From assembly GCA_013375475.1 (NCBI GenBank), contig JABXKD010000071.1:1-17614 (forward strand): DNA of 17,614 bases. Reading direction: 5' to 3'. The notes below the pieces were generated by a model. That model was not told the DNA's origin and did not search any database. It saw nothing but the letters and a program-made list of their open reading frames with translations. Positions 248 through 16,700 of this stretch are shown here, piece after piece. The translations under genes were made by a program, and so were the position numbers. Within the stretch, counting starts at the first letter, position 1. Every line of letters begins with the position of its first letter. This stretch comes from Promethearchaeota archaeon (GTDB taxonomy: Archaea > Asgardarchaeota > Lokiarchaeia > Sigyniarchaeales > SOKP01).

Positions 248-1456
248 ATGTCTGAAGAGGAGACAAAGAACATTATCATTAAAGATTTTTTCAAAAGGAC
301 GGTTATTCTTAACGAATTAGACGAAGCGTTAAAATTCAAACCAGATGCTCTAATTGGGATAGATCAAATTTCTTCAGAAAAATTAATTGAAAATAATGTT
401 AAAAACATAGAGGAGTTAGCACATCTCTCTTTAGAAAGCCTTCCCGATATTAAAGAAATACCTAATAATGTGCTTATAAAATGGGTTAAGATCGCTCAAG
501 TATTAGAAAAAGCCATAAAGGAAAAAACAAAAACTCATAAAAAAATATTACTGATTGGCTTGGATAATGGTGGAAAAACCAGTATCTTAGCTGTTCTTCA
601 AGATAAATTCTCAATAATCAAGTCTCTTCTACCAACAAGGGGAGTAAAGCGCGAAAAATTAGATTTTTTTGGTTATCCAATACTTTCTTGGGATTTAGGA
701 GGACAAGTTCAATATAGAGAAAAACTTTATTTCAATAGACCGGAATTATTTTTTACTGAAGCAGATTTAGTTTTATATGTAATTGACACGCAGGATAGTG
801 ATAGATTTGCAGAAGCAGCGAATTACTTCCGTGAAGTTTTAAAAGTTTTAAAAGAATTAAACGAATTTCCTCCAATTTTAGTTGTGTTATCCAAAAGCGA
901 TCAGGATATTCGCACATCTCTTGAGTGGCAGAATAACATATCTGCGATAAAAAATAAGTTTAATCATATAGTAAGGGAACACGAAAAAACTTCAATTAAG
1001 TATTCCGATACAACAATATATCAAAAAGAAACTGTATTGCAGATGTTTAGCGAAGCGTTAAAAATAGTTTCTGATACATCTGAAATTATAGAAAATATTC
1101 TTGAGGATTTTACAACTACGATAGAAGGAAAGGCTTCAAGTTTAATTTCTATGGACGGCTTAATATTTGGAAGTTACACGATTTCGGATATTGACGAGGC
1201 GTTATTAAATAATACTGCTTTGATTATGCAAACACTTTCTAACTTTCATAATTCAATCGGATTAACAAGAGAACCTTCCATGACGCTAGATTTTCCTCTG
1301 AATGGGTTTGCTATTCGAGGAGAAAAGCTATTCGAATATTCCGAACTAAAAATACCTGTTTATCTATGGCTTTTATCAGACAACGTTGACTTAATTTATG
1401 AAAAAATCGACTATTTCAAGCTACAATTATTACCATTGATAAATTTATTCCTTTAA
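248..1456 (+). CDS. Small GTPase (Arf-like G1-G3, Rag/Gtr-like architecture) with N-terminal helix-hairpin-helix-like domain and C-terminal roadblock-like domain
   Basis: G1 GLDNGGKTS, G2 PTRG, G3 WDLGGQ, G4 SKSD, G5-like TTIY. N-terminal LIGIDQISSEKLIENNVKNIEELA resembles the HhH pattern (GIGxxxAEKLxxxGxxxxEDLA). The C-terminus has a helix then ASSLISMDGLIFGS, a typical roadblock strand-DG-strand pattern. Confidence 0.88.
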   Translation: MSEEETKNIIIKDFFKRTVILNELDEALKFKPDALIGIDQISSEKLIENNVKNIEELAHLSLESLPDIKEIPNNVLIKWVKIAQVLEKAIKEKTKTHKKILLIGLDNGGKTSILAVLQDKFSIIKSLLPTRGVKREKLDFFGYPILSWDLGGQVQYREKLYFNRPELFFTEADLVLYVIDTQDSDRFAEAANYFREVLKVLKELNEFPPILVVLSKSDQDIRTSLEWQNNISAIKNKFNHIVREHEKTSIKYSDTTIYQKETVLQMFSEALKIVSDTSEIIENILEDFTTTIEGKASSLISMDGLIFGSYTISDIDEALLNNTALIMQTLSNFHNSIGLTREPSMTLDFPLNGFAIRGEKLFEYSELKIPVYLWLLSDNVDLIYEKIDYFKLQLLPLINLFL

Positions 1457-1504
1457 TCAATTATTGTGTCCTTATTTATAACTTATAATTTATTCGCCCA
1501 AAAA

Positions 1505-1532
1505 TTCTTCTTTTGAAGAACTTTATTTTTTT
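1505..1532. terminator. Weak candidate terminator between convergent genes
   Basis: TTCTTC-TTTT-GAAGAA hairpin (1505..1520) followed by a T-rich tract, between the convergent stops at 1456 and 1600. Confidence 0.3.
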
Positions 1533-1599
1533 ACAAGATTTCCAGGTTCTTAAAAAAAAATTAAGTTTCCAAATATTTTATATAAATTATTTACATTGT

Positions 1600-2250
1600 T
1601 TATGCTTTATCCATCATAAACATATTCCTTGCCCCTATTACATTTACAATTTCCTTTTTAATCTTTAAGATCATTTCCCTACTTAAAGAATCAAATTGAT
1701 CAGAATTTAATATCCTTTTGATAAGATTTTTGACTTTCTTTCGAAGGTCCCGAGGCATATAAACTTTTATTAAATTACTCTCTTCTAATAAAGTTAGCAA
1801 GCATATAATATTAAAGCTAGCCTCTTTACTGTTATTAACCACGTTATGAATCTTTCCTAACAATTGTTCTTTGATTTCTGGTTTTTGTAAATAATAGAGC
1901 TTAGTTTTTAAAAGGGGGCTGAATTCGCTTTTTAAAAGACCTTCTTTTTCCATTAAATCGAAATATAAATAATAATAGGCATATTTTTGAGAAAGTAGAT
2001 CGATCCAATTCATTAAACTTCGTTTTTTACCTGATGTTTTTATAATTTCGAGTATTGAATCTAAAAAATCATCTCCCGTTGCACTTGGATCAATTACTTC
2101 AATGTTACTTTCTGTTAAAGCTATTTTACCTTGAAGAAATAGATCCAATAACAATCCCCCTGCAAAACCTAAACTTTCGTAGCCTTTAGAATAACTACTC
2201 CCCGTCTGTTCATCTAAAACCATTAGTAAATAACTTTTTGAAATGAGAAT
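1600..2250 (-). CDS. GPP34/GOLPH3 (Vps74) family protein
   Basis: YLLMVLDEQTG...GFAGGLLLDLFLQGKI...TGDDFLDSILEII...WI matches the GPP34 pattern (LLLxLDxxxG...LAGAxLxELxLxGRI...TGDxxLD). The ORF track starts at ATG 2223. The frame is open upstream, and an ATT at 2250 lies 8 nt from GAGGAG (2264..2259), so the start is uncertain. Confidence 0.8.
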   Translation of the reverse strand: MLISKSYLLMVLDEQTGSSYSKGYESLGFAGGLLLDLFLQGKIALTESNIEVIDPSATGDDFLDSILEIIKTSGKKRSLMNWIDLLSQKYAYYYLYFDLMEKEGLLKSEFSPLLKTKLYYLQKPEIKEQLLGKIHNVVNNSKEASFNIICLLTLLEESNLIKVYMPRDLRKKVKNLIKRILNSDQFDSLSREMILKIKKEIVNVIGARNMFMMDKA

Positions 2251-2474
2251 GGTAATTTCTCCTCTATTTAATATGCATATAAAATTGTTTTAAAATCTTC
2301 TTTATTAAGAATATAGACTACTTTAGGTATTTAAGTTATTAGAAAAACAAACACATTATTGGTTACATTATCTAAGCATAGACCTCATAAACTTAAGGGA
2401 GTTATAAATTCTATATTATATTCAATAAATAAAGAATAAAATAATTGAAATCGTAAAAAAAATATTGTACTACC

Positions 2475-3020
2475 ATGGTAAAACATAGAAAAACGGGAGC
2501 TTATGAACATTTTTGTGTTCTTATTTTCCCACAAGGAACTTGGAAAGAAGCTGATAGGGATAATGTGAGGAATTTGATAAGAGAAAAACTGAGAAACAAG
2601 AATGATACTTACTATAATATATTCAATAAATTAACTTATCGAGATCAGATGCCCATTTATGCAGATTGCCATATATGCCAACCAATCTATAAAATGTTTG
2701 AGGAATTTAAGGGGAATAATGATGGAATTTTGTATCAAGGCCATCATTATCTTATTCCAGAGGATGATTTTGACGATATGAAATCTCTTATAAATATAAT
2801 TATTTCCCACGATAAAGTGAAGAAAGTTTATTTATTATACCTTGATGGCTTCAGAGAAATTAAAAGAACTATCCTATATGATATGAACTTAGAGGAATTC
2901 AAAGGAAAATTGAACTTTGCGAAATGTAATATTAATGATTTTATCTTGATGATTGATAATAATAAATTTAAGAACAGAACAGTTTATGAAATATCTAAAA
3001 GTAGAGGTGTTTATAATTGA
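2475..3020 (+). CDS. Hypothetical protein (181 aa)
   Basis: Long ORF in AT-rich DNA with ATG start and a CHIC (CxxC) motif. No family recognised. Confidence 0.7.
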   Translation: MVKHRKTGAYEHFCVLIFPQGTWKEADRDNVRNLIREKLRNKNDTYYNIFNKLTYRDQMPIYADCHICQPIYKMFEEFKGNNDGILYQGHHYLIPEDDFDDMKSLINIIISHDKVKKVYLLYLDGFREIKRTILYDMNLEEFKGKLNFAKCNINDFILMIDNNKFKNRTVYEISKSRGVYN

Positions 3021-3208
3021 GTGAAGAGGATGACCAAGAAAATAAAAATCAAACGGCTGAGGATATCGCCAGAATAATGGTAGAAAATATGAAAAAGAAT
3101 ATGGAAGATCCCGATTTCTTTAATAAAAGAGAAAAGATACTAGAAGATGTTACTCATAAGGTTCTCAAAAGACGCGAAGAAAAGCTTAAAAAATTTAAAG
3201 ATGAATGA
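3017..3208 (+). CDS. Small charged helical hypothetical protein (63 aa)
   Basis: TTG start overlaps the upstream TGA (TTGA, 3017..3020). SD-like GAGGTG at 3004..3009. E/K/D-rich composition. Confidence 0.6.
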   Translation: MSEEDDQENKNQTAEDIARIMVENMKKNMEDPDFFNKREKILEDVTHKVLKRREEKLKKFKDE

Positions 3209-3259
3209 TGAATAAGATTTGATAATTTTTTAACAGTTTCACACGGCAAAGCTTACTTG

Positions 3260-3484
3260 TTAGGTTAAATCCACTTTCATTTCAATATCATTTTTAGCTG
3301 AGAGTAAAAATTTGGTGCTTTTTTCCATCATCTCGATTGCTTTATTGATTTTCTCTACGACTGAATTTAAACCATTTTCTTTAGCAATATTTCTCCATTT
3401 TATATAGTTTTCTTTATGAGAGTTGTTATGTTCCGCCCAATGCTCACATAATTTAGAAAGTTTTAAAATCTGTTTTTCTACCAT
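3260..3484 (-). CDS. Small helical-hairpin protein with HWxEHNxxH motif, putative metal-binding
   Basis: KLSKLCEHWAEHNNSHKENYIKW...A...G...V...I..A...M matches a small uncharacterised family I recognise from anaerobic prokaryotes. Confidence 0.75.
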   Translation of the reverse strand: MVEKQILKLSKLCEHWAEHNNSHKENYIKWRNIAKENGLNSVVEKINKAIEMMEKSTKFLLSAKNDIEMKVDLT

Positions 3485-3611
3485 CTTAATTAATATTCAC
3501 GTTTGTTTAGTATAAGAATATAATCTAATAATTAGATTTTTTTATATATTCTTAAAAGTAAGTCTAAAATCGATTGAAATCAGAAAAAATTGATGTAATA
3601 AAACCGATTCA

Positions 3612-4226
3612 TTACAAAGAGGCTAAAAAATCTGACACTGCTATATCAGACATTTCTTCATCAAGTAAATTGTCATCAAATTCGCCTACGAGAAGACTAA
3701 ACTTATACGAGCACTTATCTCCTCCTGTTAGAATGCATTCTACTTCTTCGCCGTCTACATCAATACCTATGACATCAAAAACACTGTTGAAAATACCGAG
3801 ATATAGCAAACACAAGTTTTTAGCCATAATATTTCCTTTTTCTTGGATTGCTAATGAATCATACACGTTTATAATAACATGATCTTTCTTGAACATTCCA
3901 GTGAGTCCGCCATACCCCATTAGCATCAAAACCTCAAGTGTACCAAATATTACCTCCTTTTTAACAGCCATTTTTTCGCTACTCCAGTCTTTATTGTAAA
4001 AAAACTTTTCCATGAATATTTTTCCAAGAGATTTTCCAACCCATATGAGGATATCTTCAGCATTTGTTCCAGCGAATTCGCAAAATTCCATGATCTCATT
4101 AGGGCGAAGCATTACAAGTCTCATTTCTTTTTCTTTTTCGCCTAAAAATAGTTGTCCTTCCTTTTCTTCAACATTTATTTGTAGGTCTTTTTTTAATCGT
4201 TTGATCATGATTTTAATCTTATCCAA
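3612..4226 (-). CDS. Stand-alone V4R (4-vinyl reductase) domain protein, Bet3/TRAPP-related fold
   Basis: RLVML, VGKSLG, MGYG and C-LLYLGIF...EEVEC-ILTGGDK-C-SYKF (V4R C/E/C/C metal site). Acidic C-terminal tail. Start is TTG 4226 or ATG 4208. Confidence 0.85.
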   Translation of the reverse strand: MDKIKIMIKRLKKDLQINVEEKEGQLFLGEKEKEMRLVMLRPNEIMEFCEFAGTNAEDILIWVGKSLGKIFMEKFFYNKDWSSEKMAVKKEVIFGTLEVLMLMGYGGLTGMFKKDHVIINVYDSLAIQEKGNIMAKNLCLLYLGIFNSVFDVIGIDVDGEEVECILTGGDKCSYKFSLLVGEFDDNLLDEEMSDIAVSDFLASL

Positions 4227-4333
4227 TAATGGTAAATCTTAATTAACAATATATTTGAAAGTATTTAATATAATAGAAATTTAAATGGCTAGCTATTTAA
4301 ATTTATTGATAAAAGAAAATCTAATCCAAAACC

Positions 4334-5371
4334 CTACTCTGAGACTTGCGTGAAAATCGTGTTTAATGCTTTTTCAATATTGTGGCTAGTCTTAACAGAA
4401 GTGAATACGAACTTCCAATTACTGTTTTCTAATTTCTCAAATTCAAAAAATTTAATAATTTCTTTCCTCGTTCTTTCAAGAGAATCATTGTTATTATGCT
4501 CGTTATGGTTAATTAAATCGATTTTATTCCCTAAAATTAGAAGTGGAACATTTCTAAATTCATTCTGGTTAAAAATATTCCAAAATTCTCTCTTTGATTC
4601 TTCAAACCGTAATTGGTTAGCAACATCAATCATATACACAATTATATTCGAATCTTGAAGCCCTAATAACCATCTTTCTCTAAATGAACTCTGACCAGGA
4701 CTATCCCAGATTGACAATAAACCATCTTCTCTTTGGATATACTCAATATTAAATCTTTTGTTTGGTGTAAAAAAGTTATCGCTGTATTGACCTGTCTTAA
4801 GTCTTCTGGTTAAAGATGTCTTCCCAACATTGTCAATTCCAAATAAAAATACTTTTGTAAATAAACCTGAGGGTAGTAAAGAAACTTCTTGAGCTTTTTC
4901 AAGAGCTTCGCCTCCGAATCTTTTTATATCGATAAATAGGGTTATTAAGAAGTTCTCGATCTCAATTTCGTCTTTAAAAGAACAACATCTTTCCGTATTA
5001 AGAAGTTCGTGAGATAGGTCCTCGTATATTTCTTTATAATCGAAAGGATTATCTTCTTTTTCAAATATTAATCCAATAAGCATTTCAGAATTAACGCATA
5101 TAGTAAATATGTTCTGATCCCCTATAACCTGCGAAATAGGACTACTAATTGCGTAAGGGTTAGTGTTATTCTTTTTTTTATTTGAATTTTTAAAACTTTT
5201 AGTATTTTCACAACATGGTTCAATAAGAGATGCTTGATCATGGCCGTGAATGATTTTTAATGCGATTTCATGATTTTCTTTATTATCTATATCTTCGGGA
5301 TAACTATAGATATCAAGATTATTTAAATCATGAGAATCTTTACTTTTTAATAAAAATATTTTTAGTAACAC
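4334..5371 (-). CDS. Arf-like small GTPase with ~165-aa N-terminal domain (putative longin-like)
   Basis: G1 GIDNVGKTS, switch I PNKRFNIE, G3 WDSPGQ followed by FRERW, G4 NKID, G5 TSVK. The N-terminal pattern (KIFLL / IYSYP / helix / IFTICV / LIGLIF / helices) fits longin topology; this part is inferred. GTG start. Confidence 0.85.
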   Translation of the reverse strand: MLLKIFLLKSKDSHDLNNLDIYSYPEDIDNKENHEIALKIIHGHDQASLIEPCCENTKSFKNSNKKKNNTNPYAISSPISQVIGDQNIFTICVNSEMLIGLIFEKEDNPFDYKEIYEDLSHELLNTERCCSFKDEIEIENFLITLFIDIKRFGGEALEKAQEVSLLPSGLFTKVFLFGIDNVGKTSLTRRLKTGQYSDNFFTPNKRFNIEYIQREDGLLSIWDSPGQSSFRERWLLGLQDSNIIVYMIDVANQLRFEESKREFWNIFNQNEFRNVPLLILGNKIDLINHNEHNNNDSLERTRKEIIKFFEFEKLENSNWKFVFTSVKTSHNIEKALNTIFTQVSE

Positions 5372-5538
5372 AGAATTTTCCTAATCATTTATTCCCTTAA
5401 GGATGTAAATAAAAATTGCTTAAAAAAAGTTTGGAATTGGACGAAGAACCTCTCTTATAAACTTTATGCTATTTAGAAATTAATAGCCAAACAAAGAAAT
5501 AATACATTTAGCTTAATTTTGAGTTTTGAGGAAAGATT

Positions 5539-6924
5539 TTACGAATCTGTATCTTCTTCACTATTCAATTCTTCTTCCGAGATCTCATTTTGATCTGCTT
5601 TTGATGGTTCTTTTGGCTCTTCTTCTTGAGAAGGTTTTTCTCCAACCGGAGTATCACACACCGGACATTTCTTCCATCCGGGTCTTAAACTATATCCACA
5701 GCTAGAACACTCCGACATATCTTGATCAGGTTGCCATTCAGGAATATTTAATCCTCCTCTTCTTCGTTTCTCTGCTAATTCTAGTAAATCTTCTTCTTTC
5801 CAAACATCCATGCCTTCAGGAATGCCTGAACCACGCTCTTCAGCGAATTTTACTAAATCTTCCTCACTCCAAGTTGGAAGATCTGGTTGTGCGGCTAGTC
5901 TTTTTTGAGCTTCACTGGCGAGTTCTTCAGCAGTCCAAGATTTCAATTCCTGCCCTCCAGGTGTTCTGATCCCCCCTCCAGGCGGTCCAGCAGTAGGAGC
6001 ACTTTGAGTAGGTTCTTGATGACTTTGTGAAGGTACTTGACAACATGAAGCGGATAATTTTAATAAAGCTTCAAAACAGTTTCCGAATCGAAGATTTTCC
6101 TGATTCTCGTCAGTGATTAAGACAATACTTTTTTTATCGGATGGTAAAGGTATTGCTATACTACAAACCGCAATATCTGACGTGATTCTTCCAGATTCTA
6201 ACGCAGTAATAATTTTTTTCATAGATTTAACTAATTCATCATCTTTCATCAAAAAATCACAGATAGGGTCACCATGTCTTTGAAATTCTTCGTGATATTT
6301 AGCTAATTGATTTTTAGTTATTACAGAATCTAATGAATTTATGAGAGCACTAATATAAGGAAACAAATGAGACTTCGGTTCTTTTTCAGAAGCATCTAAT
6401 TTGTAACCTCCTAGATCTAAATTTCCTGTAAAAGGTGCGAACAAAGGTTCTTGATCTTTAATCTTTCCATATAATGTTGTTCTGTCAATAAAACATTTAA
6501 TTTCACCGTAATATGCAATAGAGTTATCCAAAAGTTCTACTTTATCGTTATATGTTATACGAGGAAAAGTTCGAAAGACTACATCAACCCATGGCATTTC
6601 CTTTACTGGAATTATTGCTACACAAGTTTTAATGATTAACTCCGATAGTTTTTTAAGGTATTCTTTTAATTTCTTCTTGATCTCTTTATATTTGTCTTTT
6701 TCAAGCTCGGTTTCAGCATTTTTCATAAATTCCTTGAATTTTTCCTCATTTTTTTTCACTGAACCTCCGAAGGATTGTACCTCTCCTACAATGTTATCTT
6801 TTAGAATGAATGTAGCATCATTTATTATATCTTTTTGAAGTTCTGTGAGTTCTTCAACCAAATACTCGCTCACTTCAAAATTTAGACTGTCAATAAAGAT
6901 TTCAAACAATTTCGCTTCTGACAA
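5539..6924 (-). CDS. Hypothetical protein with Pro/Gly linker, three WxxE(E/D)LxxxAx(K/E)R repeats, C-terminal zinc ribbon and acidic tail
   Basis: 461-aa ORF with TTG start. CSSC-x10-CPVC zinc ribbon at 5656..5709. Repeats are visible in the translation. Confidence 0.85.
   Translation of the reverse strand: MSEAKLFEIFIDSLNFEVSEYLVEELTELQKDIINDATFILKDNIVGEVQSFGGSVKKNEEKFKEFMKNAETELEKDKYKEIKKKLKEYLKKLSELIIKTCVAIIPVKEMPWVDVVFRTFPRITYNDKVELLDNSIAYYGEIKCFIDRTTLYGKIKDQEPLFAPFTGNLDLGGYKLDASEKEPKSHLFPYISALINSLDSVITKNQLAKYHEEFQRHGDPICDFLMKDDELVKSMKKIITALESGRITSDIAVCSIAIPLPSDKKSIVLITDENQENLRFGNCFEALLKLSASCCQVPSQSHQEPTQSAPTAGPPGGGIRTPGGQELKSWTAEELASEAQKRLAAQPDLPTWSEEDLVKFAEERGSGIPEGMDVWKEEDLLELAEKRRRGGLNIPEWQPDQDMSECSSCGYSLRPGWKKCPVCDTPVGEKPSQEEEPKEPSKADQNEISEEELNSEEDTDS
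5734..5937 (-). repeat. Protein-level tandem repeat, period 22-23 aa
   Basis: SWTAEELASEAQKR / TWSEEDLVKFAEER / VWKEEDLLELAEKR plus a fourth Trp (IPEW). Trp codons at 5937, 5871, 5802 and 5736 (spacing 66, 69, 66 nt). Confidence 0.85.
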
Positions 6925-7060: not shown

Positions 7061-8086
7061 ATGAGTACAAATAAAATCACGGTCTGTTTTACATCCCCTG
7101 TGTCAAAAGAAGTCCAGAATTACTTAGGAAAAAACCTTAAAAAACATCCAAATGTAAAAATTTTATTTCCAAAAGATACTTCTGAAGAGATTTTATCAGA
7201 TATAGTTCCTAACGCAGATATTTTGATTGGATGGAGACCCTCAAAAACATTGTTAGACAAGGCAACTAAACTAAAAGTATTCATTAATCCCGGTGCTGGT
7301 GTCAATCATCTTTTGGATTTATTTAGGAGAGTAAATAAAAATCGTAAAGTTTTATTGATCAATGGACACGGTAATTCTTACTTTGTAGCTCAACATGCCG
7401 TTGCCCTACTTTTAACTCTGATGAACAAAACTATTTCTCATCACATATGGATGAAAGAAGGTAGATGGCGTACTGGAGATAAAGATGCAGCATCAATTCC
7501 ATTACGCTTTCGAGAAATTGGACTTCTAGGTTATGGCGCAATTAACCAAAAAGTACATTGTTTTCTCTCAGGATTTAATGTGAATTTTCATATTTTAAGA
7601 AATAATTGGAATAAACAAAAGAACGAGTTGCCCACTCCCGCTAAAAAATACGATTTCAACCAGCTGTATGATTTTTTAAAAGAAATTGATGTTTTAATGA
7701 TAGCGATTCCAGTTACTTCACTAACATCAGGATTAATTAAAGCCAAGGAAATCCGTTTGCTAGGACCAGATGGTCTAATTATCAATATTGCTAGAGGAGA
7801 GATCATTAATCAAGAGGATCTTTACAAATCTTTGAAAAATAGAATAATTACGGGGGCAGCTATAGATGTTTGGTATGATTATCATCCGCTTCCAGATAAA
7901 AACGGCATTAAACATCCTTATGAGTTCCCTTTTCATACACTTGATAACATTATTTTATCTCCGCATAGGGCATACTCTCCTTTTAGTGATCTGTTGAGAT
8001 GGAATGAAGTAGTGGAAAATATTGCTCGCATGGCTAAGGGGAACAAAAACCTAATCAATGTTGTCAATCTGGAGGAGGAGTATTAA
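7061..8086 (+). CDS. D-isomer-specific 2-hydroxyacid dehydrogenase family protein
   Basis: GAGVNH, VAQHAVALLL, Rossmann IGLLGYGAIN, PVTSLTSGLI, INIARG, AAIDVW, ILSPHRA (catalytic Arg and His present). Confidence 0.92.
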   Translation: MSTNKITVCFTSPVSKEVQNYLGKNLKKHPNVKILFPKDTSEEILSDIVPNADILIGWRPSKTLLDKATKLKVFINPGAGVNHLLDLFRRVNKNRKVLLINGHGNSYFVAQHAVALLLTLMNKTISHHIWMKEGRWRTGDKDAASIPLRFREIGLLGYGAINQKVHCFLSGFNVNFHILRNNWNKQKNELPTPAKKYDFNQLYDFLKEIDVLMIAIPVTSLTSGLIKAKEIRLLGPDGLIINIARGEIINQEDLYKSLKNRIITGAAIDVWYDYHPLPDKNGIKHPYEFPFHTLDNIILSPHRAYSPFSDLLRWNEVVENIARMAKGNKNLINVVNLEEEY

Positions 8087-8400
8087 TTCTCTAGTAATTT
8101 AAGAATTAAACGTGTTCACTCTTTCTCCAAAGTGTTGAACTTTTATTTTTATTATTTAGAATTTTGAGATAATAGACTAATCAAGATTTTTTATCATAAT
8201 ATTTGAAAAATTAAATATTTAGAATGAAAAGCGAATATAAATTCTTTCAATTCAGACATTTCTCCTTGTTTTTACATTTTTTGCTTATTTCTGTTTTTTC
8301 TCGCGAAAAAAATGACATATAATTTTTTTTTCCAAATTTAAAAGTCCAACATTTTTTGTATTTAGGAGTTATTAGTTTTTTTAAAAAAATTTTAACTACT

Positions 8401-9281: not shown

Positions 9282-10526
9282 ATGGAGTGGGGTATTATAA
9301 GTAAAGAAAATTTTGTCGGAAAAACATCTTATGATGTTCCAATTAAGAGATGGGATCCATTATCGACAGTAACCATAAGAACAGAAGACTTTGGTCTTAG
9401 AAAAGAAAGAATTAAATTCTATGGGCATTACGCTTATATAAGCCCCATTCGGGGTAAAAGACCTAAAGGCTTTACGAGCATTGAAGAAAAAAAACAGTTC
9501 TATGATTGTTCCAAGAAAATTTCGTTACAGCATAAAGACGTGTTCACAGCGATCACAGAAGGAAAGCCAATTTATGATGATAGGGGTAAACAATTAGGCG
9601 ATGGTTTTACAATGATTATTGCTGAAGACGAGAAAAGAAAAGACAATCCCTTTTTAGAAATACCACATCGAAACCAAAGAATATCAGAAGATTGTAAAGC
9701 CTTGACATTAATTAATAGGTATCCTTCGATGGCTCGGATTGTTGATCCTGATATTGAAAAATTGATAACTGATAAATTACCATTACACATAAAACTCTCA
9801 AGGGGCATAAATTTAGTTACAATTTCAAGGAATTTTTATCCTTCTCTGTGTTTTAACTTAATTCCTGAAGATATTTTAGCTAGTATATTCTTATCCATGA
9901 AAGCCGCAATTCTTTATTGTATTGAAGAAGCAATAGAGAGAGATTTTTACGATATTCCGATATCGCCCTTTTTCAATATAGGCCTTAAAGTTGGTGGCTC
10001 ACAACCACGAATACATAGCCAAGTATATATTGATTTAAATATGGATGGTCACGGAAGCCGATTGGAAGGACACCTTGAAGCATTTAAAGAGATGGGAGAT
10101 AATTGTCATCTATGTCAGACATCTCACGGAGATAGTGATAGAATTATCATTAAAACTAAGTTTTGGACTTTTTTTACCACAGGAAGTCCAGTAAGGAATT
10201 ATCACATACGATTTCATCCTAATGAACATCTACGCAGGTTTTCCCAACTAAAAGTTAATCAAATAAACGACCTTGCAAAAATATTAAAGGTTATCTTACA
10301 AGGTATGGATGACATTTCAATAGATAAAAATCGAAATATTTTGTTTAACTGTTGTCCTTATCATTACGATGCAAATTTCCATTTGTTTGGAGATATAATT
10401 CCTCACGAAATTATAGGAGGTGCTGAAATGGTTGATGATATGAGAGTTGCGAGAAAATTACCACATATAGCTGCTAGCGAAATCAGAAATTCAATTGAAA
10501 AATATGTTAACGAGATAGAATGGTAA
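9282..10526 (+). CDS. GalT-like (HIT superfamily) sugar-1-phosphate nucleotidyltransferase / NDP-sugar phosphorylase
   Basis: ISPIRGKRP, INRYPS, FNIGLKVGGSQPRIHSQ (cf. NxGxxAGASxxHPHxQ), CHLC, FHLFGDIIP...GGAE. Confidence 0.8.
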   Translation: MEWGIISKENFVGKTSYDVPIKRWDPLSTVTIRTEDFGLRKERIKFYGHYAYISPIRGKRPKGFTSIEEKKQFYDCSKKISLQHKDVFTAITEGKPIYDDRGKQLGDGFTMIIAEDEKRKDNPFLEIPHRNQRISEDCKALTLINRYPSMARIVDPDIEKLITDKLPLHIKLSRGINLVTISRNFYPSLCFNLIPEDILASIFLSMKAAILYCIEEAIERDFYDIPISPFFNIGLKVGGSQPRIHSQVYIDLNMDGHGSRLEGHLEAFKEMGDNCHLCQTSHGDSDRIIIKTKFWTFFTTGSPVRNYHIRFHPNEHLRRFSQLKVNQINDLAKILKVILQGMDDISIDKNRNILFNCCPYHYDANFHLFGDIIPHEIIGGAEMVDDMRVARKLPHIAASEIRNSIEKYVNEIEW

Positions 10527-10575
10527 TAGATTTATATCTATTATTCACCATATATATAATGTAACTTTTTTTGAG

Positions 10576-11733
10576 GTGTTCAATTTGAAAGATTGGTCTG
10601 CTATAGTACTCGCCGGAGGTAGAGGTAAAAGACTTTTACCTCTGACTTCACTGATACCTAAACCATTAGTGAAGGTTACAAATAAACCAATGGTAGATTA
10701 TTCAATAGCTCACCTAATTTATGCCGATATCAAACATATAATTCTTGCTTTGGCTTATATGGGTAAAGAATTAAAAGAATATATAGAAAAAACTTGGACA
10801 CCAGATAAATTGGGTGATGTCGAGTTAGAATGTTTTGTTCAAGAGAGTAATGGTACCGCAGATGCATACAGGTTATTAAAGAACAGTATTGATTCTGACA
10901 ATGTAGTAGTGAGCATGGCAGATATCGTTACAAATCTTCCAATGAGAAATTTTATGGATTTTCACATAGAGAAAGGTGGGATAAGCACAATTTCTATGAA
11001 AACCAGTGAAAGTCATACAAGTCAGTATGGTGTTGTTCTTCTCGATAATCATAGAAAAATATATCTATTTTTAGAAAAACCCGCTCCTATGGAATTATAT
11101 TTGAGTAGTATGGCTCAAAGAACAGATTTATTTCTGCATACAAACATTATTAACACTGGAATTTATTGTTTTAAAAGGGAAATTGAGAGTATATTGCAAG
11201 AAACAAATTTATTGGATTTTGGTAGTGAAGTTTTCCCCTATCTCCTTGAAAATTCGTATGATCTGTATGGTTTTGTTAAAAATTACTATTGGTTGGATTG
11301 TGGAAACTCCCAGACTTATTTATGGGCAAATTGGGATTTATTACGCAAATATTCTTGGCCGATTACTCCAAATGGTGAAGAATACGATGGCGTATTTGTT
11401 ATGGGAATAATTAATTCTGGTCAAAATGCAATCATTGAAAAACCCACCTGTTTTGGGGAAAATGTTGAGCTTTTTAATAGAGTGAAAATAAAACCACTTA
11501 GTTCCATTGGAAACCGCGTCAAAATAGGGGAAGATACAATAATAGAGAAAAGTGTTATCTGGGACGATGTTATTATTGGAGCAGGGTGTCACATTGATGA
11601 CTCTATAGTTTGCAATAACTGCCAAATAGGGGATAATGTCGTTTTACATAATGCAATAGTAGCACCCAATAGTAAAATCAGCAGTGATACTCAAATAAGA
11701 GATAAAACTCTGGAACTTGGAACCAACATCTAA
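10576..11733 (+). CDS. NDP-sugar pyrophosphorylase (mannose-1-P guanylyltransferase / GlgC-like) with C-terminal left-handed beta-helix
   Basis: AIVLAGGRGKRLLPLT..PKPL, GTAD, YGVV, FLEKP, INTGIY, DFGSEVFP, YWLDCG, then hexapeptide repeats. The true start may be the in-frame TTG at 10585, with GAGGTG (10573..10578) as SD. Confidence 0.92.
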   Translation: MFNLKDWSAIVLAGGRGKRLLPLTSLIPKPLVKVTNKPMVDYSIAHLIYADIKHIILALAYMGKELKEYIEKTWTPDKLGDVELECFVQESNGTADAYRLLKNSIDSDNVVVSMADIVTNLPMRNFMDFHIEKGGISTISMKTSESHTSQYGVVLLDNHRKIYLFLEKPAPMELYLSSMAQRTDLFLHTNIINTGIYCFKREIESILQETNLLDFGSEVFPYLLENSYDLYGFVKNYYWLDCGNSQTYLWANWDLLRKYSWPITPNGEEYDGVFVMGIINSGQNAIIEKPTCFGENVELFNRVKIKPLSSIGNRVKIGEDTIIEKSVIWDDVIIGAGCHIDDSIVCNNCQIGDNVVLHNAIVAPNSKISSDTQIRDKTLELGTNI

Positions 11734-11755
11734 AACCCTTTTTTTATGGGATTTT
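11732..11755. terminator. Candidate terminator between convergent genes
   Basis: AAAACCC-TTTTTTTAT-GGGATTTT, an imperfect hairpin containing a T7 run, in the 24-bp gap between the convergent stops. Confidence 0.4.
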
Positions 11756-11757
11756 GT

Positions 11758-14700
11758 TTAAGAAATATTCTGTAAATCATCTAAAAATTTTGTTACTTGA
11801 TATTTTGAATTTTTTGCTATTTCTTCGATTCTCTGATAAAAAGTCAATAAATTATTCAGTTCCTTGCTCGCATTATTTTTACTGTTTGCAATTTTGTCAA
11901 TTACAGCAGTTATCCAAATCCACCTTGTAAAAGTAGCAAATTGCTCTGCACTATACCAAAGAAGGTTATGATATCTATTTACTTTTAAATAAACTTGAAT
12001 TTCAGGGTCCCTAAAGAAAGATTGAAAGATCTCATAAAGATTTTTTTCAGAAAAATCAATTAACTTCGCCCAGTTTTGGAGAGAAACCATTAGTTTTATT
12101 ATTGAACCGACTTCCAAATCTTTCTCGTCCTTTTTTATTGATAATACATTCAATGTATTTGCTATGTATTTTGATAAACGCCACTCATCAAACAAACTAC
12201 GACTTTTAAGTTCATAATTTTTTTCAGAAATAACTCTTCCTAATTGATGAATAAATACCCAAGAAATTACTATCCCCCATTCAAATTCAGATTTAGGAAG
12301 AATGTTGGCTAAAGTGTTCTTCATTTTAACAGAAAGATCTAAATGTGTAAAGCCGTGATGTAATTGTAAAAGTGTATTTAATTTAATTTGAATATCTTTT
12401 TCTATTTTAGTCACATCCTTATTACTCGAAGAGTATTTTTTCACTTCAGCTAAAAATATTTTAAGTTTTTTAGTTGTACTTTCTAAAATAAATTCCGTTT
12501 TCTGAGTTTCTAATAGGTTTTTAAAACTATTGATATTGACTATTTTCTTAAAGGATTCGAGTAATGGTTGGTATATTATTTCATGAAGTGTCTCGTTAAT
12601 ATTATGGACACCTCTACCCCCTAGAAGATCATATAATTGGGCGTAGTGGAAAAATTCATTATCATTTACTATTTGGAAATCCATGAATGAAAAGCATTGA
12701 AATGCTTGGAGTTCTAAATACAAACCTTGATCGTGAAGATCTTGATTTCGTCTTATATATTCTAATCCGGTCATATAATCTTTAAAGATGCAGTATCCTT
12801 CTTTTGGTAATTTTAATCCCTCAATTATGGTTTTTTGAGCTTGAATTTTATCATTTTTTTGTTTAACAGCAAAACCAACAGAATTTTTAATAAAACCTTT
12901 TGTTTCTGCATATTTATTGTGATAAATAATCAAAGCACGTTCAGTATTAACTCTATTTGAATACGCAAACACATCTTCATTCACCATATTTCCACTCCAA
13001 AAATCATAGAGTAAAAAATTATCAGCATTAGCAAATAAGTAGCGTTTTTTCATTATAGGAAAGATTACTTTTTCATGGTGTTGAAGCAGATCCAAATTGA
13101 TTTTTTCATCCCAATAAGGGCGTCTATACTCCATACCGTACTTTTCGTGAAAACCCTCTATTTGACCGTGTCCAAACATAGGCAAACCCGGCATAGTTAT
13201 CATCATTAAACAAACACCAAAATATTTCCCACTATCTCCAAATTGTTTAATAGCAGTTTCTTCGTCTGGATTATTCATGAAATTAACAAATCTTTTAAGG
13301 ATTTCGGGGTCGAATTGTAAGGTATTTTTTAAGACTAGTCGATACATGGCGTTATCTTCGTCTCTGAGCATATTCATAAAAGCAGAATTATACACACGAT
13401 GCATTCCTAAAGTCCTTACGAAAAATCCTTCGAGCAACCAGAATGCTTCTGCGAGCAATAATGTATCAGGATTTTCTTCATTGATTTTATCTACAACTTC
13501 ACGCCAGAATTCTTGTGGCATTAATTTATAAAACTCATCTTTTGAAATACCCTGTTCTGCTCTTGAAGGAATAGCACCTCCAGTTCCTGGTTCAGGAAAC
13601 CATAGGCGTTGATAATGCTTTCTCGTTAGAGTCATAGCGGCATCAAAACGAATGATGGGAAACATTTTAGAAACATGCAATATAGTTTTTATAACTGCTT
13701 CTCGAACTTCAGGATTTAGAAAGTTTAATTGAGCAGTATCATTCCAAGGAAAACTTGTTCCATCGTTTCCGTGGTAAATATATTTCTCTTCTCCTGATCG
13801 AAAATCTACATGTTTAAATGTAACAGCTGCGTCGGTTCTTGAAAAATACTTATCCTCCAAATAAATTCCGATATTTGGATCATCGGATAAATTTTCGCCC
13901 GAAAAAGTATAAGAGGGGAAGGGGGAATACGGTAGAGATACGTACCAATCAGGATGTTCCTTAAGCCATTTTGAAACAATTCCGGTATGATTGGGAACCA
14001 TATCACAGGCAAGACGAATTCCTCTCGCTATTGCTCTCTCTTTTAAATTCTTATAAGCTTCATAACCTCCCAAGTCATAAGCAATATTATAATCGTAAGT
14101 TGAATAAGCACTTGCTTCTGCTTCGGGGTTTCCACACCATCTCTTAATAGTTTTAGACGCTTGACTTCTCTCCCATAAACCAATAAGCCACAATCCAGTA
14201 AAGCCCCATTCTTTTAGTTGATCTAATTCTTCGTCAGGTATTTCATTTAAATGGGAAATATCTTTCTCATAAGTTAGAGATAATTGATTCATCCAAACAT
14301 ATACATTTTTAGCAATCATCACAACTTTAGGCATCCATTCTTTATCGAGAGTGTAATTTTCGAGTTCGAATGCATCATAATCATAAGCTTCTGACTTACC
14401 GGGACCTAAACCTCTCAGCAGTTCTTCTTCTCGTATGATGTCAATAGCAACTAAGATCTTGAAGAGGTATTTTCCTACCAGTTCCCCCCAATTCTCATGA
14501 ATATATTCCAATTGCTCACGAATTGAATGAGGATATTTAATAGCGGGTTCAGTTAGCATTTCAATTAAGTTTTGATTATTCGGACCGAATCTTGTTTTCT
14601 CTTCGAAAAAATTTGTAATTTCATCAATAATTTCCCTATAAGCAGTCCTTTTTTCAAGGGATTCATCATCAAATAGTTCTATAAAAGGAGAATATGAAGG

Positions 14701-15165
14701 ATTACTATTTCCAAACCACAAGGCTATGAATTCATCAACAAAATGGATTTTGTTACCAACACCATTAACTTCTTCTTTTAAAAATTCTTCAATATTTACT
14801 TCTTCTTGATACACTTTTTCAGGAGGGAATTCTTCTATCAAAGAATGTATAGCCTTATCCAGCTTTAAATCCCCAACTTTATCTTTTAAATAATCAAAAA
14901 GTTCCAGGATTAGTAAATCGTTTTTTGTTTCATGTCTGTACAATTCTAGTAGATATTTTTTTATTTCATACATTAGTGCCATTCCATTGAATTCACCTAT
15001 CCGAACAGCTAATTCAGGGTAATTGATTAAGTCTTTCTTTTGATTTAATTTCTGCACAAATAACCTAACTAAATGGGTATCACCCTCAAATTCAATGTTT
15101 CCCCTTTCAGTAAATTTGAAGTCATTTAATTCATATTTATTCCTAGCATCTCTCGAAATTTTCAT
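11758..15165 (-). CDS. Large GH13 alpha-amylase-family glycoside hydrolase/transglycosylase (1135 aa)
   Basis: GFTGLWLIGLWE, region I DMVPNH, region II IRFDAA (nucleophile Asp), region III LAEAFW (acid/base Glu), region IV FMNNPDE, MPGLPMF. Long helical N- and C-terminal extensions. Confidence 0.92.
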   Translation of the reverse strand: MKISRDARNKYELNDFKFTERGNIEFEGDTHLVRLFVQKLNQKKDLINYPELAVRIGEFNGMALMYEIKKYLLELYRHETKNDLLILELFDYLKDKVGDLKLDKAIHSLIEEFPPEKVYQEEVNIEEFLKEEVNGVGNKIHFVDEFIALWFGNSNPSYSPFIELFDDESLEKRTAYREIIDEITNFFEEKTRFGPNNQNLIEMLTEPAIKYPHSIREQLEYIHENWGELVGKYLFKILVAIDIIREEELLRGLGPGKSEAYDYDAFELENYTLDKEWMPKVVMIAKNVYVWMNQLSLTYEKDISHLNEIPDEELDQLKEWGFTGLWLIGLWERSQASKTIKRWCGNPEAEASAYSTYDYNIAYDLGGYEAYKNLKERAIARGIRLACDMVPNHTGIVSKWLKEHPDWYVSLPYSPFPSYTFSGENLSDDPNIGIYLEDKYFSRTDAAVTFKHVDFRSGEEKYIYHGNDGTSFPWNDTAQLNFLNPEVREAVIKTILHVSKMFPIIRFDAAMTLTRKHYQRLWFPEPGTGGAIPSRAEQGISKDEFYKLMPQEFWREVVDKINEENPDTLLLAEAFWLLEGFFVRTLGMHRVYNSAFMNMLRDEDNAMYRLVLKNTLQFDPEILKRFVNFMNNPDEETAIKQFGDSGKYFGVCLMMITMPGLPMFGHGQIEGFHEKYGMEYRRPYWDEKINLDLLQHHEKVIFPIMKKRYLFANADNFLLYDFWSGNMVNEDVFAYSNRVNTERALIIYHNKYAETKGFIKNSVGFAVKQKNDKIQAQKTIIEGLKLPKEGYCIFKDYMTGLEYIRRNQDLHDQGLYLELQAFQCFSFMDFQIVNDNEFFHYAQLYDLLGGRGVHNINETLHEIIYQPLLESFKKIVNINSFKNLLETQKTEFILESTTKKLKIFLAEVKKYSSSNKDVTKIEKDIQIKLNTLLQLHHGFTHLDLSVKMKNTLANILPKSEFEWGIVISWVFIHQLGRVISEKNYELKSRSLFDEWRLSKYIANTLNVLSIKKDEKDLEVGSIIKLMVSLQNWAKLIDFSEKNLYEIFQSFFRDPEIQVYLKVNRYHNLLWYSAEQFATFTRWIWITAVIDKIANSKNNASKELNNLLTFYQRIEEIAKNSKYQVTKFLDDLQNIS

Positions 15166-15305
15166 ATGGAATTCACATTTCTAAATATATTCTTATAATT
15201 AATTATGCCCGACTTATTATATTACGATTGACTTTTTAACGAAAGTTATTAATGTAAAACTATCTATAATAATTATATTTTTCAATTCGAAAATTCCAAA
15301 TCTCA

Positions 15306-16700
15306 ATGGTTAAATTGTCTCAGCGCATCCAAAATTTAAACGAACTAAATAAAAACGGTCGGATAGTAGGAAAAGCAAATTACATCTTTACACCTGAGAT
15401 CTCAAGCTCAATTGGCTCTATTCATGGAAGTTCATTTAAGGTGGACGAAACTGTTGTAATTGGTCGAGATTACCATAACGATAGTCGCATGTTAAAAAGA
15501 GCATATACCTCAGGAGTCATGAGCACTGGAATAAATGTCTTAAATCTCGCAGATTGTACCTTTCCATTATTAGAATTCACCATTAGGCGATTTGGGGCAA
15601 GTGGAGGCGCATATTTCTCAGGAGGGCACTTATATAGTGAAGATGTTGGAGTGAAATTTGCCGATGCTGGAGGAATTGAATTAGCTCCCTTAGAAATCAA
15701 AAAGATCATTGAATCTTACAACACATATCCAACACAAATTCGACGTGTTGATCCAAGGATGATAGGACAAATTATCGCTATCCCTCAAACTCAAGACGTG
15801 TATATCAAGTCCTTAGAGCAATTTGTCAACAAAAAACAAATTAAAGAGGCTAACTTAAAAATAGTGGTAGATTGCTCCTTTAGCCCAACCGGGAAAATTA
15901 CTCCTTTGCTTATAAATGAAGTGGGCGTAGAAGTTATTGCTCTTAATACTCACTATCGAGAAAGATCTAAAATCCCCGTACCGAGTGTTAATACGATTAA
16001 AAACGCTGCGGATATTGTAAAAGCATCTAACAGTCATTTAGGAGTATGCTTTGATGTGGATGGATCGCGGATATTAGTGGTAGACGAAAACGGTTTAGAG
16101 ATTTGTTTTGAAGATTTATTAATGCTTTTTATTGCATATGACAAAAGAATTAGAAATTCTAAAAATAGCTCAGTTATATTAACACCTTCAATATCTCCCG
16201 TTATCAAAAACTTTATTGAAGAGAGTGGTCATCCCATTAAACTCGTAGAAAACTATCCGGGTGAGCTTTCGAGACAAATAAGGCAAGAAAGAGCATGTTT
16301 TGCGGCCGCAGACTCTCTAAAATTCTATTTTCCAAGTTATGCTCCTTTTAGTGATGGTAATTTTATTTTACTTAAAATTTTAGAAATAATGTCGATTCAA
16401 AAAGATCTTATTAGCTCTCTTACTAAGGGTTTCCCTAAGGGTATAAAAGTCAATAAAACGATACCGGTTTCGGCCGAAGCTATGGAAAACATGCACAATC
16501 GGTTAATTGAATTTGCTGACGAATATGAATTAAAGTACCAAGACATTATAAATGAGCTAAAAATAATAGATGAAGACGTGTATGTTAAAATTAAAGTTGC
16601 CTTGAATAGAAACGCGATTTTAATGTCAGCAGAATCTGAGGATACCCGTAAGTCGGAGAAAATGATAGCAAAGTTATCTAAAATTATTTCTAACTTATAA
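15306..16700 (+). CDS. Alpha-D-phosphohexomutase (PMM/PGM) fold protein with degenerate active site
   Basis: GRIVG, VVIGRD...SRMLK, FTIRRFGASGG, LKIVVDC, GVCFDVDGSR, DG..ILLKILE. The TASHNP position reads SGGHLY. Confidence 0.88.
   Translation: MVKLSQRIQNLNELNKNGRIVGKANYIFTPEISSSIGSIHGSSFKVDETVVIGRDYHNDSRMLKRAYTSGVMSTGINVLNLADCTFPLLEFTIRRFGASGGAYFSGGHLYSEDVGVKFADAGGIELAPLEIKKIIESYNTYPTQIRRVDPRMIGQIIAIPQTQDVYIKSLEQFVNKKQIKEANLKIVVDCSFSPTGKITPLLINEVGVEVIALNTHYRERSKIPVPSVNTIKNAADIVKASNSHLGVCFDVDGSRILVVDENGLEICFEDLLMLFIAYDKRIRNSKNSSVILTPSISPVIKNFIEESGHPIKLVENYPGELSRQIRQERACFAAADSLKFYFPSYAPFSDGNFILLKILEIMSIQKDLISSLTKGFPKGIKVNKTIPVSAEAMENMHNRLIEFADEYELKYQDIINELKIIDEDVYVKIKVALNRNAILMSAESEDTRKSEKMIAKLSKIISNL

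Follow-up and report, generated by a model that had tools for sequence, protein, structure and literature searches.

The contig JABXKD010000071.1 (17,614 bases), analyzed here over its whole length and referred to as the window, belongs to the 3.92-Mb draft genome of a Promethearchaeota archaeon and forms one end of an approximately 20-kb gene block, the order of which is shared across a whole family of Loki-type Asgard archaea. The real feature of this DNA is a family-wide block of guanosine triphosphatase (GTPase) and regulator genes with a candidate three-gene switch, in which V4R-1 (a probable V4R-type protein), G2 (an Arf/Arl-like GTPase) and Znr461 (a zinc-ribbon protein) are encoded side by side. 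An earlier note on the same DNA had singled out positions 248-6924 as a possible membrane-signaling module, made up of a GTPase-roadblock fusion (G1), a GPP34/GOLPH3-like gene, a V4R gene and a second, Arf-like GTPase with a longin-like N-terminus. All four genes lie where that note placed them, and a neighborhood of GTPases and regulators is indeed what we find; the four genes do not form a set, and the link to Golgi-type trafficking through GOLPH3 and TRAPP is not supported.

We accepted seven open reading frames (ORFs) between positions 248 and 6924 as genes, two of which (s74 and Znr461) are real genes that the earlier list had left out:

G1, 248-1456, plus strand: Rag-type small GTPase of 402 amino acids (Pfam, profile against the PDB, AlphaFold 2 (AF2) model, Foldseek)
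GPP34, 1600-2223, minus strand: GPP34/GOLPH3 family, 207-amino-acid form (Pfam PF05719)
unk181, 2475-3020, plus strand: ORF of 181 amino acids with no family match
s74, 3260-3484, minus strand: small helical protein of 74 amino acids (conserved ORF cluster of the block)
V4R-1, 3612-4208 (ORF open to a TTG at 4226), minus strand: probable V4R-type, MsvR-like protein of the Bet3-fold family, 198 amino acids (sub-cut-off Pfam score, MsvR match, ESM Atlas)
G2, 4334-5371, minus strand: Arf/Arl-like GTPase of 345 amino acids with a probable N-terminal longin-type domain (Pfam, AF2 model, Foldseek)
Znr461, 5539-6924, minus strand: uncharacterized Loki-specific zinc-ribbon protein (alignment of 32 orthologues)

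To define the block, we took approximately 20 kb of sequence surrounding the G1 orthologue from each of 40 genomes, added two loci that the GPP34 search had supplied, and clustered all ORFs; the counts given for the block are over 38 family loci. The same order recurs across seven genera. Genes for a TPR/SNAP-like, an MtrH-like and a vWA-RING protein point leftward, G1 points rightward, and s74, V4R-1, G2 and Znr461 again point leftward, with a co-directional CO-dehydrogenase-like gene between s74 and V4R-1 in many loci. Beyond Znr461, an optional 2-hydroxyacid dehydrogenase gene, RHH, unk414 and an NTP-transferase gene all point rightward. In this genome, the genes for the TPR/SNAP-like (381 amino acids), MtrH-like (293 amino acids) and vWA plus RING/PHD-finger (399 amino acids) proteins end a different contig, C236 (locus L113, 3657-7110). 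Because the start of the vWA-RING gene lies 17 bases from the end of that contig, the window begins at a joint of the block, and contigs C236 and C257 are probably neighbors.

Within the block, V4R-1 and G2 are immediate neighbors on the same strand in 29/29 loci, separated by gaps of 53-178 bp, as are G2 and Znr461 in 30/30 loci, with gaps of 115-231 bp. The vWA-RING gene and G1 are immediate, divergently oriented neighbors in all 37 loci, and G1 directly adjoins s74 in 21 of the 24 loci in which s74 was found. s74, for which Pfam and NCBIfam scans returned no family match, is thus a conserved member of the block. V4R-1 occurs in 37/41 family genomes. Of the 37 family genomes with both V4R-1 and the N-terminal domain of G2, 35 carry them on one contig, approximately 0.6-0.8 kb apart by our own reading of the coordinate lists, and two carry them on separate contigs. 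The four family genomes without the G2 domain are the same four that lack V4R-1 (G048, G009, G041 and G062); we did not count this shared absence as co-loss, because G1 sits at a contig edge in three of them and is missing from the fourth, so that an assembly gap explains it.

The trio of V4R-1, G2 and Znr461 stays whole through all local changes seen in the 38 loci. The gene encoding a Prismane/CO-dehydrogenase-family protein of approximately 785 amino acids, which most of the family has between s74 and V4R-1, is lost in the window and its four closest relatives (L015-L018), inverted in two loci (L043, L044) and doubled in another (L048). Extra ORFs lie beside the trio in five loci (L022, L025, L026, L028, L040), and approximately 12 kb are inserted between G1 and the trio in L044/L058. 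In each case the three genes remain together. Because they are co-directional, lie 53-231 bp apart and are never interrupted, we interpret them as acting together.

Beyond the family, the block comes apart into G1 with vWA-RING and TPR genes, with or without Znr461; G2 alone; and V4R genes beside other GTPases. G1 adjoins the vWA-RING and TPR genes in three of five such loci (L051, L052, L059), two of them with Znr461 nearby. The N-terminal domain of G2 is present as a single copy in 36/40 genomes of the family and in 3/3 of its sister family, and in none of 157 genomes from other families of the phylum sample.

V4R-1 is probably a cysteine-bearing V4R protein of the MsvR type, judging from sequence comparisons. 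Four lines of evidence support this assignment. The V4R half of the NCBIfam model MsvR (NF053755) matches residues 29-175 with an E-value of 4.3e-6 and 26.6 bits, against an equivalog cut-off of 220. The ESM-Atlas neighbors of V4R-1 carry V4R at scores of 0.93-0.97. All of 30 orthologues retain C138 and C163 and at least 90% retain C171, and these positions align with cysteines of V4R-2, a second V4R-type protein of the same genome. Finally, hhalign pairs V4R-1 with V4R-2 at an E-value of 2.7e-4 and a probability of 41.6%; V4R-2 in turn weakly matches MJ1460, a protein of solved structure (E 0.0024). In methanogens, MsvR senses redox state with its V4R domain. Weighing against the assignment, the Pfam V4R model, which has a cut-off of 31, gives V4R-1 only 23.1 bits, or 25.2 bits when the whole genome is scanned, and a profile search of the PDB with V4R-1 gave no match. 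The earlier call of a V4R gene is probable, backed by the MsvR, ESM-Atlas and hhalign comparisons but short of the Pfam threshold. Its orthologues begin at the ATG at 4208, which is likely the true start rather than position 4226.

Only two V4R-type genes were found in this genome, and both adjoin small-GTPase genes. The second forms a co-directional unit of its own (L060, 5712-7108, equivalent to contig C214:19711-21107), in which a Rab-like GTPase of 182 amino acids is followed by a thioredoxin-like protein of 85 amino acids and by V4R-2 (159 amino acids, four conserved cysteines). The three genes keep this order and strand in 39/42 loci, which are drawn from three families of the order and include three genomes assembled as a single contig. 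In the three exceptions, a contig end cuts the locus, the GTPase lies on the other strand, or the thioredoxin-like gene comes after V4R-2. The unit is flanked in this genome by a TBP gene and a second Rab-like GTPase gene. In a fourth family, homologues of V4R-1 lie 1.1-1.4 kb from a same-strand Rab-like GTPase gene in 3/3 loci. Among seven V4R-1 loci of the sister family, four have no GTPase gene within 4 kb, two have weak (24%) opposite-strand matches, and one has no V4R-1 match by tblastn.

Two further variations touch V4R-1. Three loci (L025 at 7742-8287, L026 and L028) carry an extra Rab-like GTPase gene, encoding 179-181 amino acids, directly downstream of V4R-1, which places a GTPase gene on both of its sides. 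In two loci of genus g12 (L032, L034), the ORF at the position of V4R-1 (169 and 79 amino acids, respectively) falls outside the V4R-1 cluster and has no tblastn match; G2 and Znr461 remain, and V4R-1 may there have been degraded or replaced.

G2 is an Arf/Arl-like GTPase by both sequence and fold. It scores 98.6 bits with the Pfam Arf model (cut-off 22.3) and carries the G-domain motifs GIDNVGKTS, WDSPGQ, NKID and TSVK. In Foldseek, its GTPase half matches Arl8b (E 3e-12, template modeling (TM) score normalized to the target 0.89), Arl3 and the Asgard ArfRs, and the VIA structure alignment pairs it with Arf6 at a Z score of 21.6 and a root-mean-square deviation of 2.0 over 163 aligned residues, with Sar1 among the other fold matches. 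Ahead of this half, the N-terminus is a folded domain of approximately 170 residues that starts with a strand; the amphipathic helix found at the N-terminus of Arf proteins is not present. In the AF2 model, the first ~160-170 amino acids contain the elements E3-9, E18-23, H30-49, E78-82, E85-92, E96-103, H108-125 and H134-157, that is, a β-β-α-β-β-β-α-α arrangement, at predicted local distance difference test (pLDDT) values mostly between 62 and 87 and with a variable loop at 45-75. This is the order of elements in longin domains. A longin-type domain would thus probably stand in G2 in place of the membrane helix.

We regard the longin assignment as probable rather than proven, and several observations count against it. 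It comes from the topology of the model; no Pfam family matched this domain at E-values up to 10 in any of 31 orthologues, and no PDB sequence matched it at E-values up to 5. Both fold searches with the whole G2 model were filled by GTPase matches spanning residues 165-344. The alignment of orthologues shows no invariant arginine in the β1-β2 stretch, a difference from the GTPase-activating (GAP) longins described in PMC12290439. Of the earlier proposal, the Arf-like GTPase is secure and the longin element order is seen in the predicted structure, and no match to a longin sequence family accompanies it.

Znr461 represents a new protein family whose members carry Trp-acidic motifs and a zinc ribbon. 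The alignment of its orthologues resolves a globular N-domain (residues 1 to ~295), a Pro/Gln linker, four Trp-acidic motifs of the W-[ST]-E-E-[ED]-L type (the last being I-P-E-W), a CxxC...CPxC zinc ribbon and an acidic tail. Pfam gives only weak zinc-ribbon matches. For the N-domain (1-300) we found no Pfam family and no solved relative, the PDB profile search returning only zinc-finger noise at positions 400-434, and the best ESM Atlas score for this region, 0.77, was uninformative. All 362 homologues of Znr461 are either unnamed or labeled ‘hypothetical’.

G1, on the far side of s74, is confirmed as a Rag-family GTPase with a C-terminal roadblock domain, a homologue of the solved LokiRagO, in agreement with the fusion proposed earlier. 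Three results establish the roadblock fusion. A profile of 39 orthologues matches PDB entry 8yl2 (LokiRagO) with an E-value of 1.3e-56 over profile positions 82-391, a region that spans the G and roadblock domains, and it also matches RagA and Gtr1. The AF2 model (pLDDT 83.7, predicted TM score (pTM) 0.76) has an α-β-β-α-β-β-β-α topology at residues 276-401. Foldseek aligns 293-324 columns of the model to LokiRagO, RagA/RagC and Gtr1/Gtr2, with target-normalized TM scores of 0.75 for LokiRagO and 0.69-0.73 for RagA and Gtr1. The protein thus comprises a helical N-terminal domain (~1-92), a G domain (~97-270) and the roadblock domain (276-401). Its Pfam scores are 72.9 bits with Gtr1_RagA (cut-off 22) and 72.5 bits with Arf, and the motifs GLDNGGKTS (P-loop), WDLGGQ and SKSD are conserved in the 39 orthologues; Pfam returned nothing usable for the pieces 1-98 and 270-402 alone. 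Nearly all sampled genomes of the family have a full-length orthologue, with 54-93% identity among the matches listed. A literature search on LokiRagO and 8yl2 found no paper. In one locus of another family (L051, 6524-8719), a shorter G1 paralogue of 304 amino acids and 36% identity directly follows the G1 orthologue, an arrangement that recalls the Rag-like gene pair in one operon reported for strain MK-D1 in PMC10933270.

The joint of the block that varies most holds GPP34 and unk181, which are inserted there optionally and do not belong to the block itself; GPP34 is a passenger. The gene itself is a clear member of its family, as the earlier note had it (93.3 bits with PF05719 against a cut-off of 29.1, covering model positions 8-186 of 201). 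It lies between G1 and V4R-1 only in the window, in a sister species (L002) and in genome G024 (L003), corresponding to two of the 31 family loci that span the G1-V4R joint, and a search with the window's GPP34 as the query found it in a patchy 9/24 genomes of the genus. In the sister species, GPP34 contains an in-frame TAA. Between the window and G024, GPP34 is 67% identical, compared to 92% for G1 and 88% for V4R-1. In the relatives nearest by G1 identity (93%, 88%, 87% and 85%), G1 and V4R-1 are either 0.3-0.5 kb apart or separated only by s74 or unk181. unk181 was found only in the window, L002 and L017, without a Pfam or NCBIfam match. A search for repeats flanking the GPP34/unk181 insert gave only short AT-rich matches at chance level. 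The conservation of gene order by which the earlier note would judge the clustering is thus seen for G1 and for the V4R-1, G2 and Znr461 genes, and not for GPP34.

In the window, an upstream in-frame ILI replaces the usual MLI start of GPP34, so that the ORF begins ten residues later. This shortened start need not mean decay, because the 207-amino-acid form is common among close homologues. All 33 close homologues with an organism label are Asgard proteins, at 53-100% identity; we therefore see no sign of the recent bacterial origin that the earlier note had named as a possible objection. PMC11706023 reports GPP34 among archaea only in Asgard archaea, with a patchy and non-monophyletic distribution. 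A small-GTPase gene is found no more than 2 kb from GPP34 homologues in three of approximately seven lineages, namely at the window site, at a second copy in this genome (L001) and in genus g2 (L012-L014), compared to approximately 0.1 expected from the density of GTPase genes, although these lineages are few and were grouped by eye after the data had been seen. The second copy (L001, 5340-9048, on contig C233) encodes 202 amino acids that are 23-24% identical to the window copy. It lies 1.8 kb from a gene for a 437-amino-acid Rab-like GTPase with a hydrophobic C-terminal half, with an opposite-strand gene in between.

G1, V4R-1, unk181, s74 and parts of G2 and Znr461 are covered by contigs from two metatranscriptome libraries. 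Some of these contigs are near-identical to the window, including one from an RNA library that covers 2463-2682 in unk181. Such contigs may hold DNA and show no transcript ends, and they give a weak hint that the block genes are expressed. No contig covers 1562-2242, the GPP34 region, in the two runs, which says nothing on its expression because the contigs come from relatives and may be DNA.

The explanation that we prefer, and to which we give an even chance of being correct, is a GTPase switch, G2, with a sensor-type V4R partner and an adaptor-type partner in Znr461, next to a separate Rag-type unit. By analogy, V4R-1 would probably form a dimer and sense a thiol, a metal or a small hydrophobic ligand. 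It could then act on G2 through the longin platform of G2 itself, altering the nucleotide state, and Znr461, as an adaptor or effector, would use its short Trp-acidic motifs to read this state. The second unit would comprise G1, the TPR protein and the vWA-RING gene, which is transcribed divergently from G1. Again by analogy, the cysteines of the MsvR type and the thioredoxin of the V4R-2 unit lead us to favor thiol or metal sensing over the activity of a TRAPP-type exchange factor. A more elaborate version, which we put forward as a long shot, envisions a self-contained sensor-switch-adaptor system: the cysteine/metal site or cavity of the V4R protein would sense redox state or a hydrophobic ligand and gate nucleotide exchange on G2 via the longin domain, and the Trp-acidic motifs of Znr461 would recruit a TPR-type partner, for example the SNAP-like protein of the block. 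If true, this system and the order-wide Rab-thioredoxin-V4R unit would together mean that regulation of a small GTPase by a Bet3-fold protein was established in Loki-type archaea before TRAPP.

Several observations weigh against reading the trio as a functional unit. Pairs of block genes without an expected link are kept almost as well as the trio (TPR-MtrH 31/32, RHH-unk414 25/26, unk414-NTP-transferase 18/19, Znr461-dehydrogenase 19/19), so that order within the family says little by itself. A metabolic gene, the CO-dehydrogenase-like one, sits inside the block in most genomes. The intergenic gaps of 100-230 bp, in a genome of 28-30% GC, are long enough to hold separate promoters. The G2 orthologues of the sister family (30-35% identity) lie among CDC48-like, PEPCK, GrpE and HSP20-like genes, and tblastn at an E-value of 1e-3 finds neither V4R-1 nor Znr461 at these loci; the trio thus formed late. 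A rival explanation is inherited gene order alone, in which little has been rearranged since the family's ancestor and G1, G2, V4R-1 and Znr461 act independently. In its favor are the retention of unlinked neighboring pairs in 94-100% of loci, the splitting of the block in other families, and the statement in PMC10933270 that the GTPase genes of MK-D1 are not generally in operons with roadblock, longin or TRAPPC3 genes. Inertia alone accounts less well for a trio that survives each local rearrangement around it, for V4R-type genes that lie beside small-GTPase genes in at least three different and unrelated arrangements, and for the placement of both V4R-type genes of this genome next to small GTPases, even though the Arf model has only 72 matches in the whole-genome scan (an upper bound), or approximately one per 54 kb. 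These three observations support the trio beyond family order, and we consider inherited order alone a serious but rather unlikely explanation.

The trio might instead serve the carbon metabolism of the neighboring CO-dehydrogenase-like and MtrH-like genes, for example as a unit that matures or regulates a metal center, with the cysteine-rich V4R protein and the zinc-ribbon protein handling metal or redox state. The CO-dehydrogenase gene is co-directional and just downstream of V4R-1, as its immediate neighbor in 18 of the 26 loci that have both; the MtrH-like gene lies inside the block; and the match of the V4R-1 family to MsvR would fit a redox function. The loss of the CO-dehydrogenase gene from the locus in the window and its four closest relatives, with the trio intact, and its inversion in L043 and L044 argue otherwise. 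Furthermore, metal-insertion GTPases are not known from this GTPase class. We judge this role very unlikely. Least probable of all is the proto-Golgi or TRAPP-like trafficking module of the earlier note, which would have the two GTPases cooperate with the V4R protein and GPP34 at a membrane. Each of the four domain types is indeed present, and the proximity of GPP34 homologues to small GTPases in three of approximately seven lineages exceeds expectation, a grouping that was, however, made after the data were seen. GPP34 occupies the site in only two of the 31 loci that span the joint and occurs in 9/24 genomes of the genus, it has acquired a stop codon in the sister species, and its 67% identity contrasts with the 88-92% of its neighbors. 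We saw no predicted membrane anchor in these proteins, and G2 lacks the amphipathic helix of Arf proteins. The Asgard GTPase, roadblock and TRAPPC3 proteins expressed in HeLa cells in PMC10933270 were diffuse rather than membrane-bound.

The preferred reading, a G2 switch with V4R-1 and Znr461 as partners, matters for assigning regulators to the dozens of small GTPases that Asgard genomes hold. Genome layout was of little help for such matching in MK-D1, according to PMC10933270. A fixed pairing would offer three or four proteins to mix: G2 with V4R-1 and Znr461, and G1 with the vWA-RING protein. Conversely, the most eye-catching gene, GOLPH3-like and adjacent to GTPases of the Arf and Rag types, is optional at this locus, which should not be cited as evidence of a Golgi-like system.

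Where homologues of the window's proteins carry organism labels, these read Lokiarchaeota or Promethearchaeota. G+C in the window varies between 26 and 36%, and searches of it for tRNA and Rfam families found none. Downstream, positions 9282-16700 hold a sugar-nucleotide/glycan gene set comprising unk414, with a weak HIT-like match (E 0.019), an NTP-transferase with a left-handed β-helix, a 1135-amino-acid protein of the alpha-amylase family and a phosphoglucomutase-like protein. The order of the first two, unk414 and the NTP-transferase, is kept throughout the family.

The individual architectures are known from print, and the gene pairings are not described in the literature that we searched (listings and abstracts). 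GTPase-roadblock, longin-GTPase and TRAPPC3/V4R proteins of Asgard archaea have been described (PMC10933270), as have Asgard ArfRs (bioRxiv 10.1101/2024.02.28.582541). Each component resembles, and departs from, a characterized relative. G1 shares with LokiRagO, RagA/C and Gtr1/2 a G domain followed by a C-terminal roadblock domain. It differs in its G4 motif, SKSD, and in having ~80-90 additional residues at the N-terminus that form a helical domain; 8yl2 aligns only from profile position 82 onward. GPP34 belongs to the Pfam family of GOLPH3/Vps74, well above the cut-off; here it is a short form that lacks the usual first ~10 residues, and its gene is optional in the block. V4R-1 aligns to the V4R half of the methanogen regulator MsvR and has three conserved cysteines. 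By contrast, it has no winged-helix half for DNA binding, and it scores far under the equivalog cut-off.

G2, with an Arf/Arl-like G domain behind a domain with the predicted longin order of elements, recalls both the ‘GTPase fused to longin domain’ architecture described for MK-D1 in PMC10933270 and the Asgard ArfRs. The ArfRs studied in bioRxiv 10.1101/2024.02.28.582541 bind membranes via an N-terminal amphipathic helix that G2 does not have. The N-domain of G2 also matches no sequence family and is seen in only two families of the order. At the level of gene arrangement, a small GTPase beside a small regulator-fold protein is reminiscent of the MglA-MglB operons, the known prokaryotic type of GTPase/regulator gene pair (PMC9481161). 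There the partner is a roadblock-domain GAP; here its fold is predicted to be V4R, a probable longin-type domain is provided in cis, and a third protein, Znr461, completes the set.

By analogy, the logic of the trio resembles that of TRAPP, but it is not a TRAPP complex. The core of TRAPP consists of Bet3-family and longin subunits and is the exchange factor for Rab1/Ypt1. As in this eukaryotic core, a probable Bet3/V4R-fold protein, a longin-type domain and a small GTPase co-occur in the trio. Here, however, GTPase and putative longin domain are parts of one fusion protein, this GTPase is of the Arf-like and not the Rab-like kind, and a single V4R gene takes the place of several Bet3-family subunits. 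The pairing arose within one family, and the block has no Rab as a fixed neighbor.

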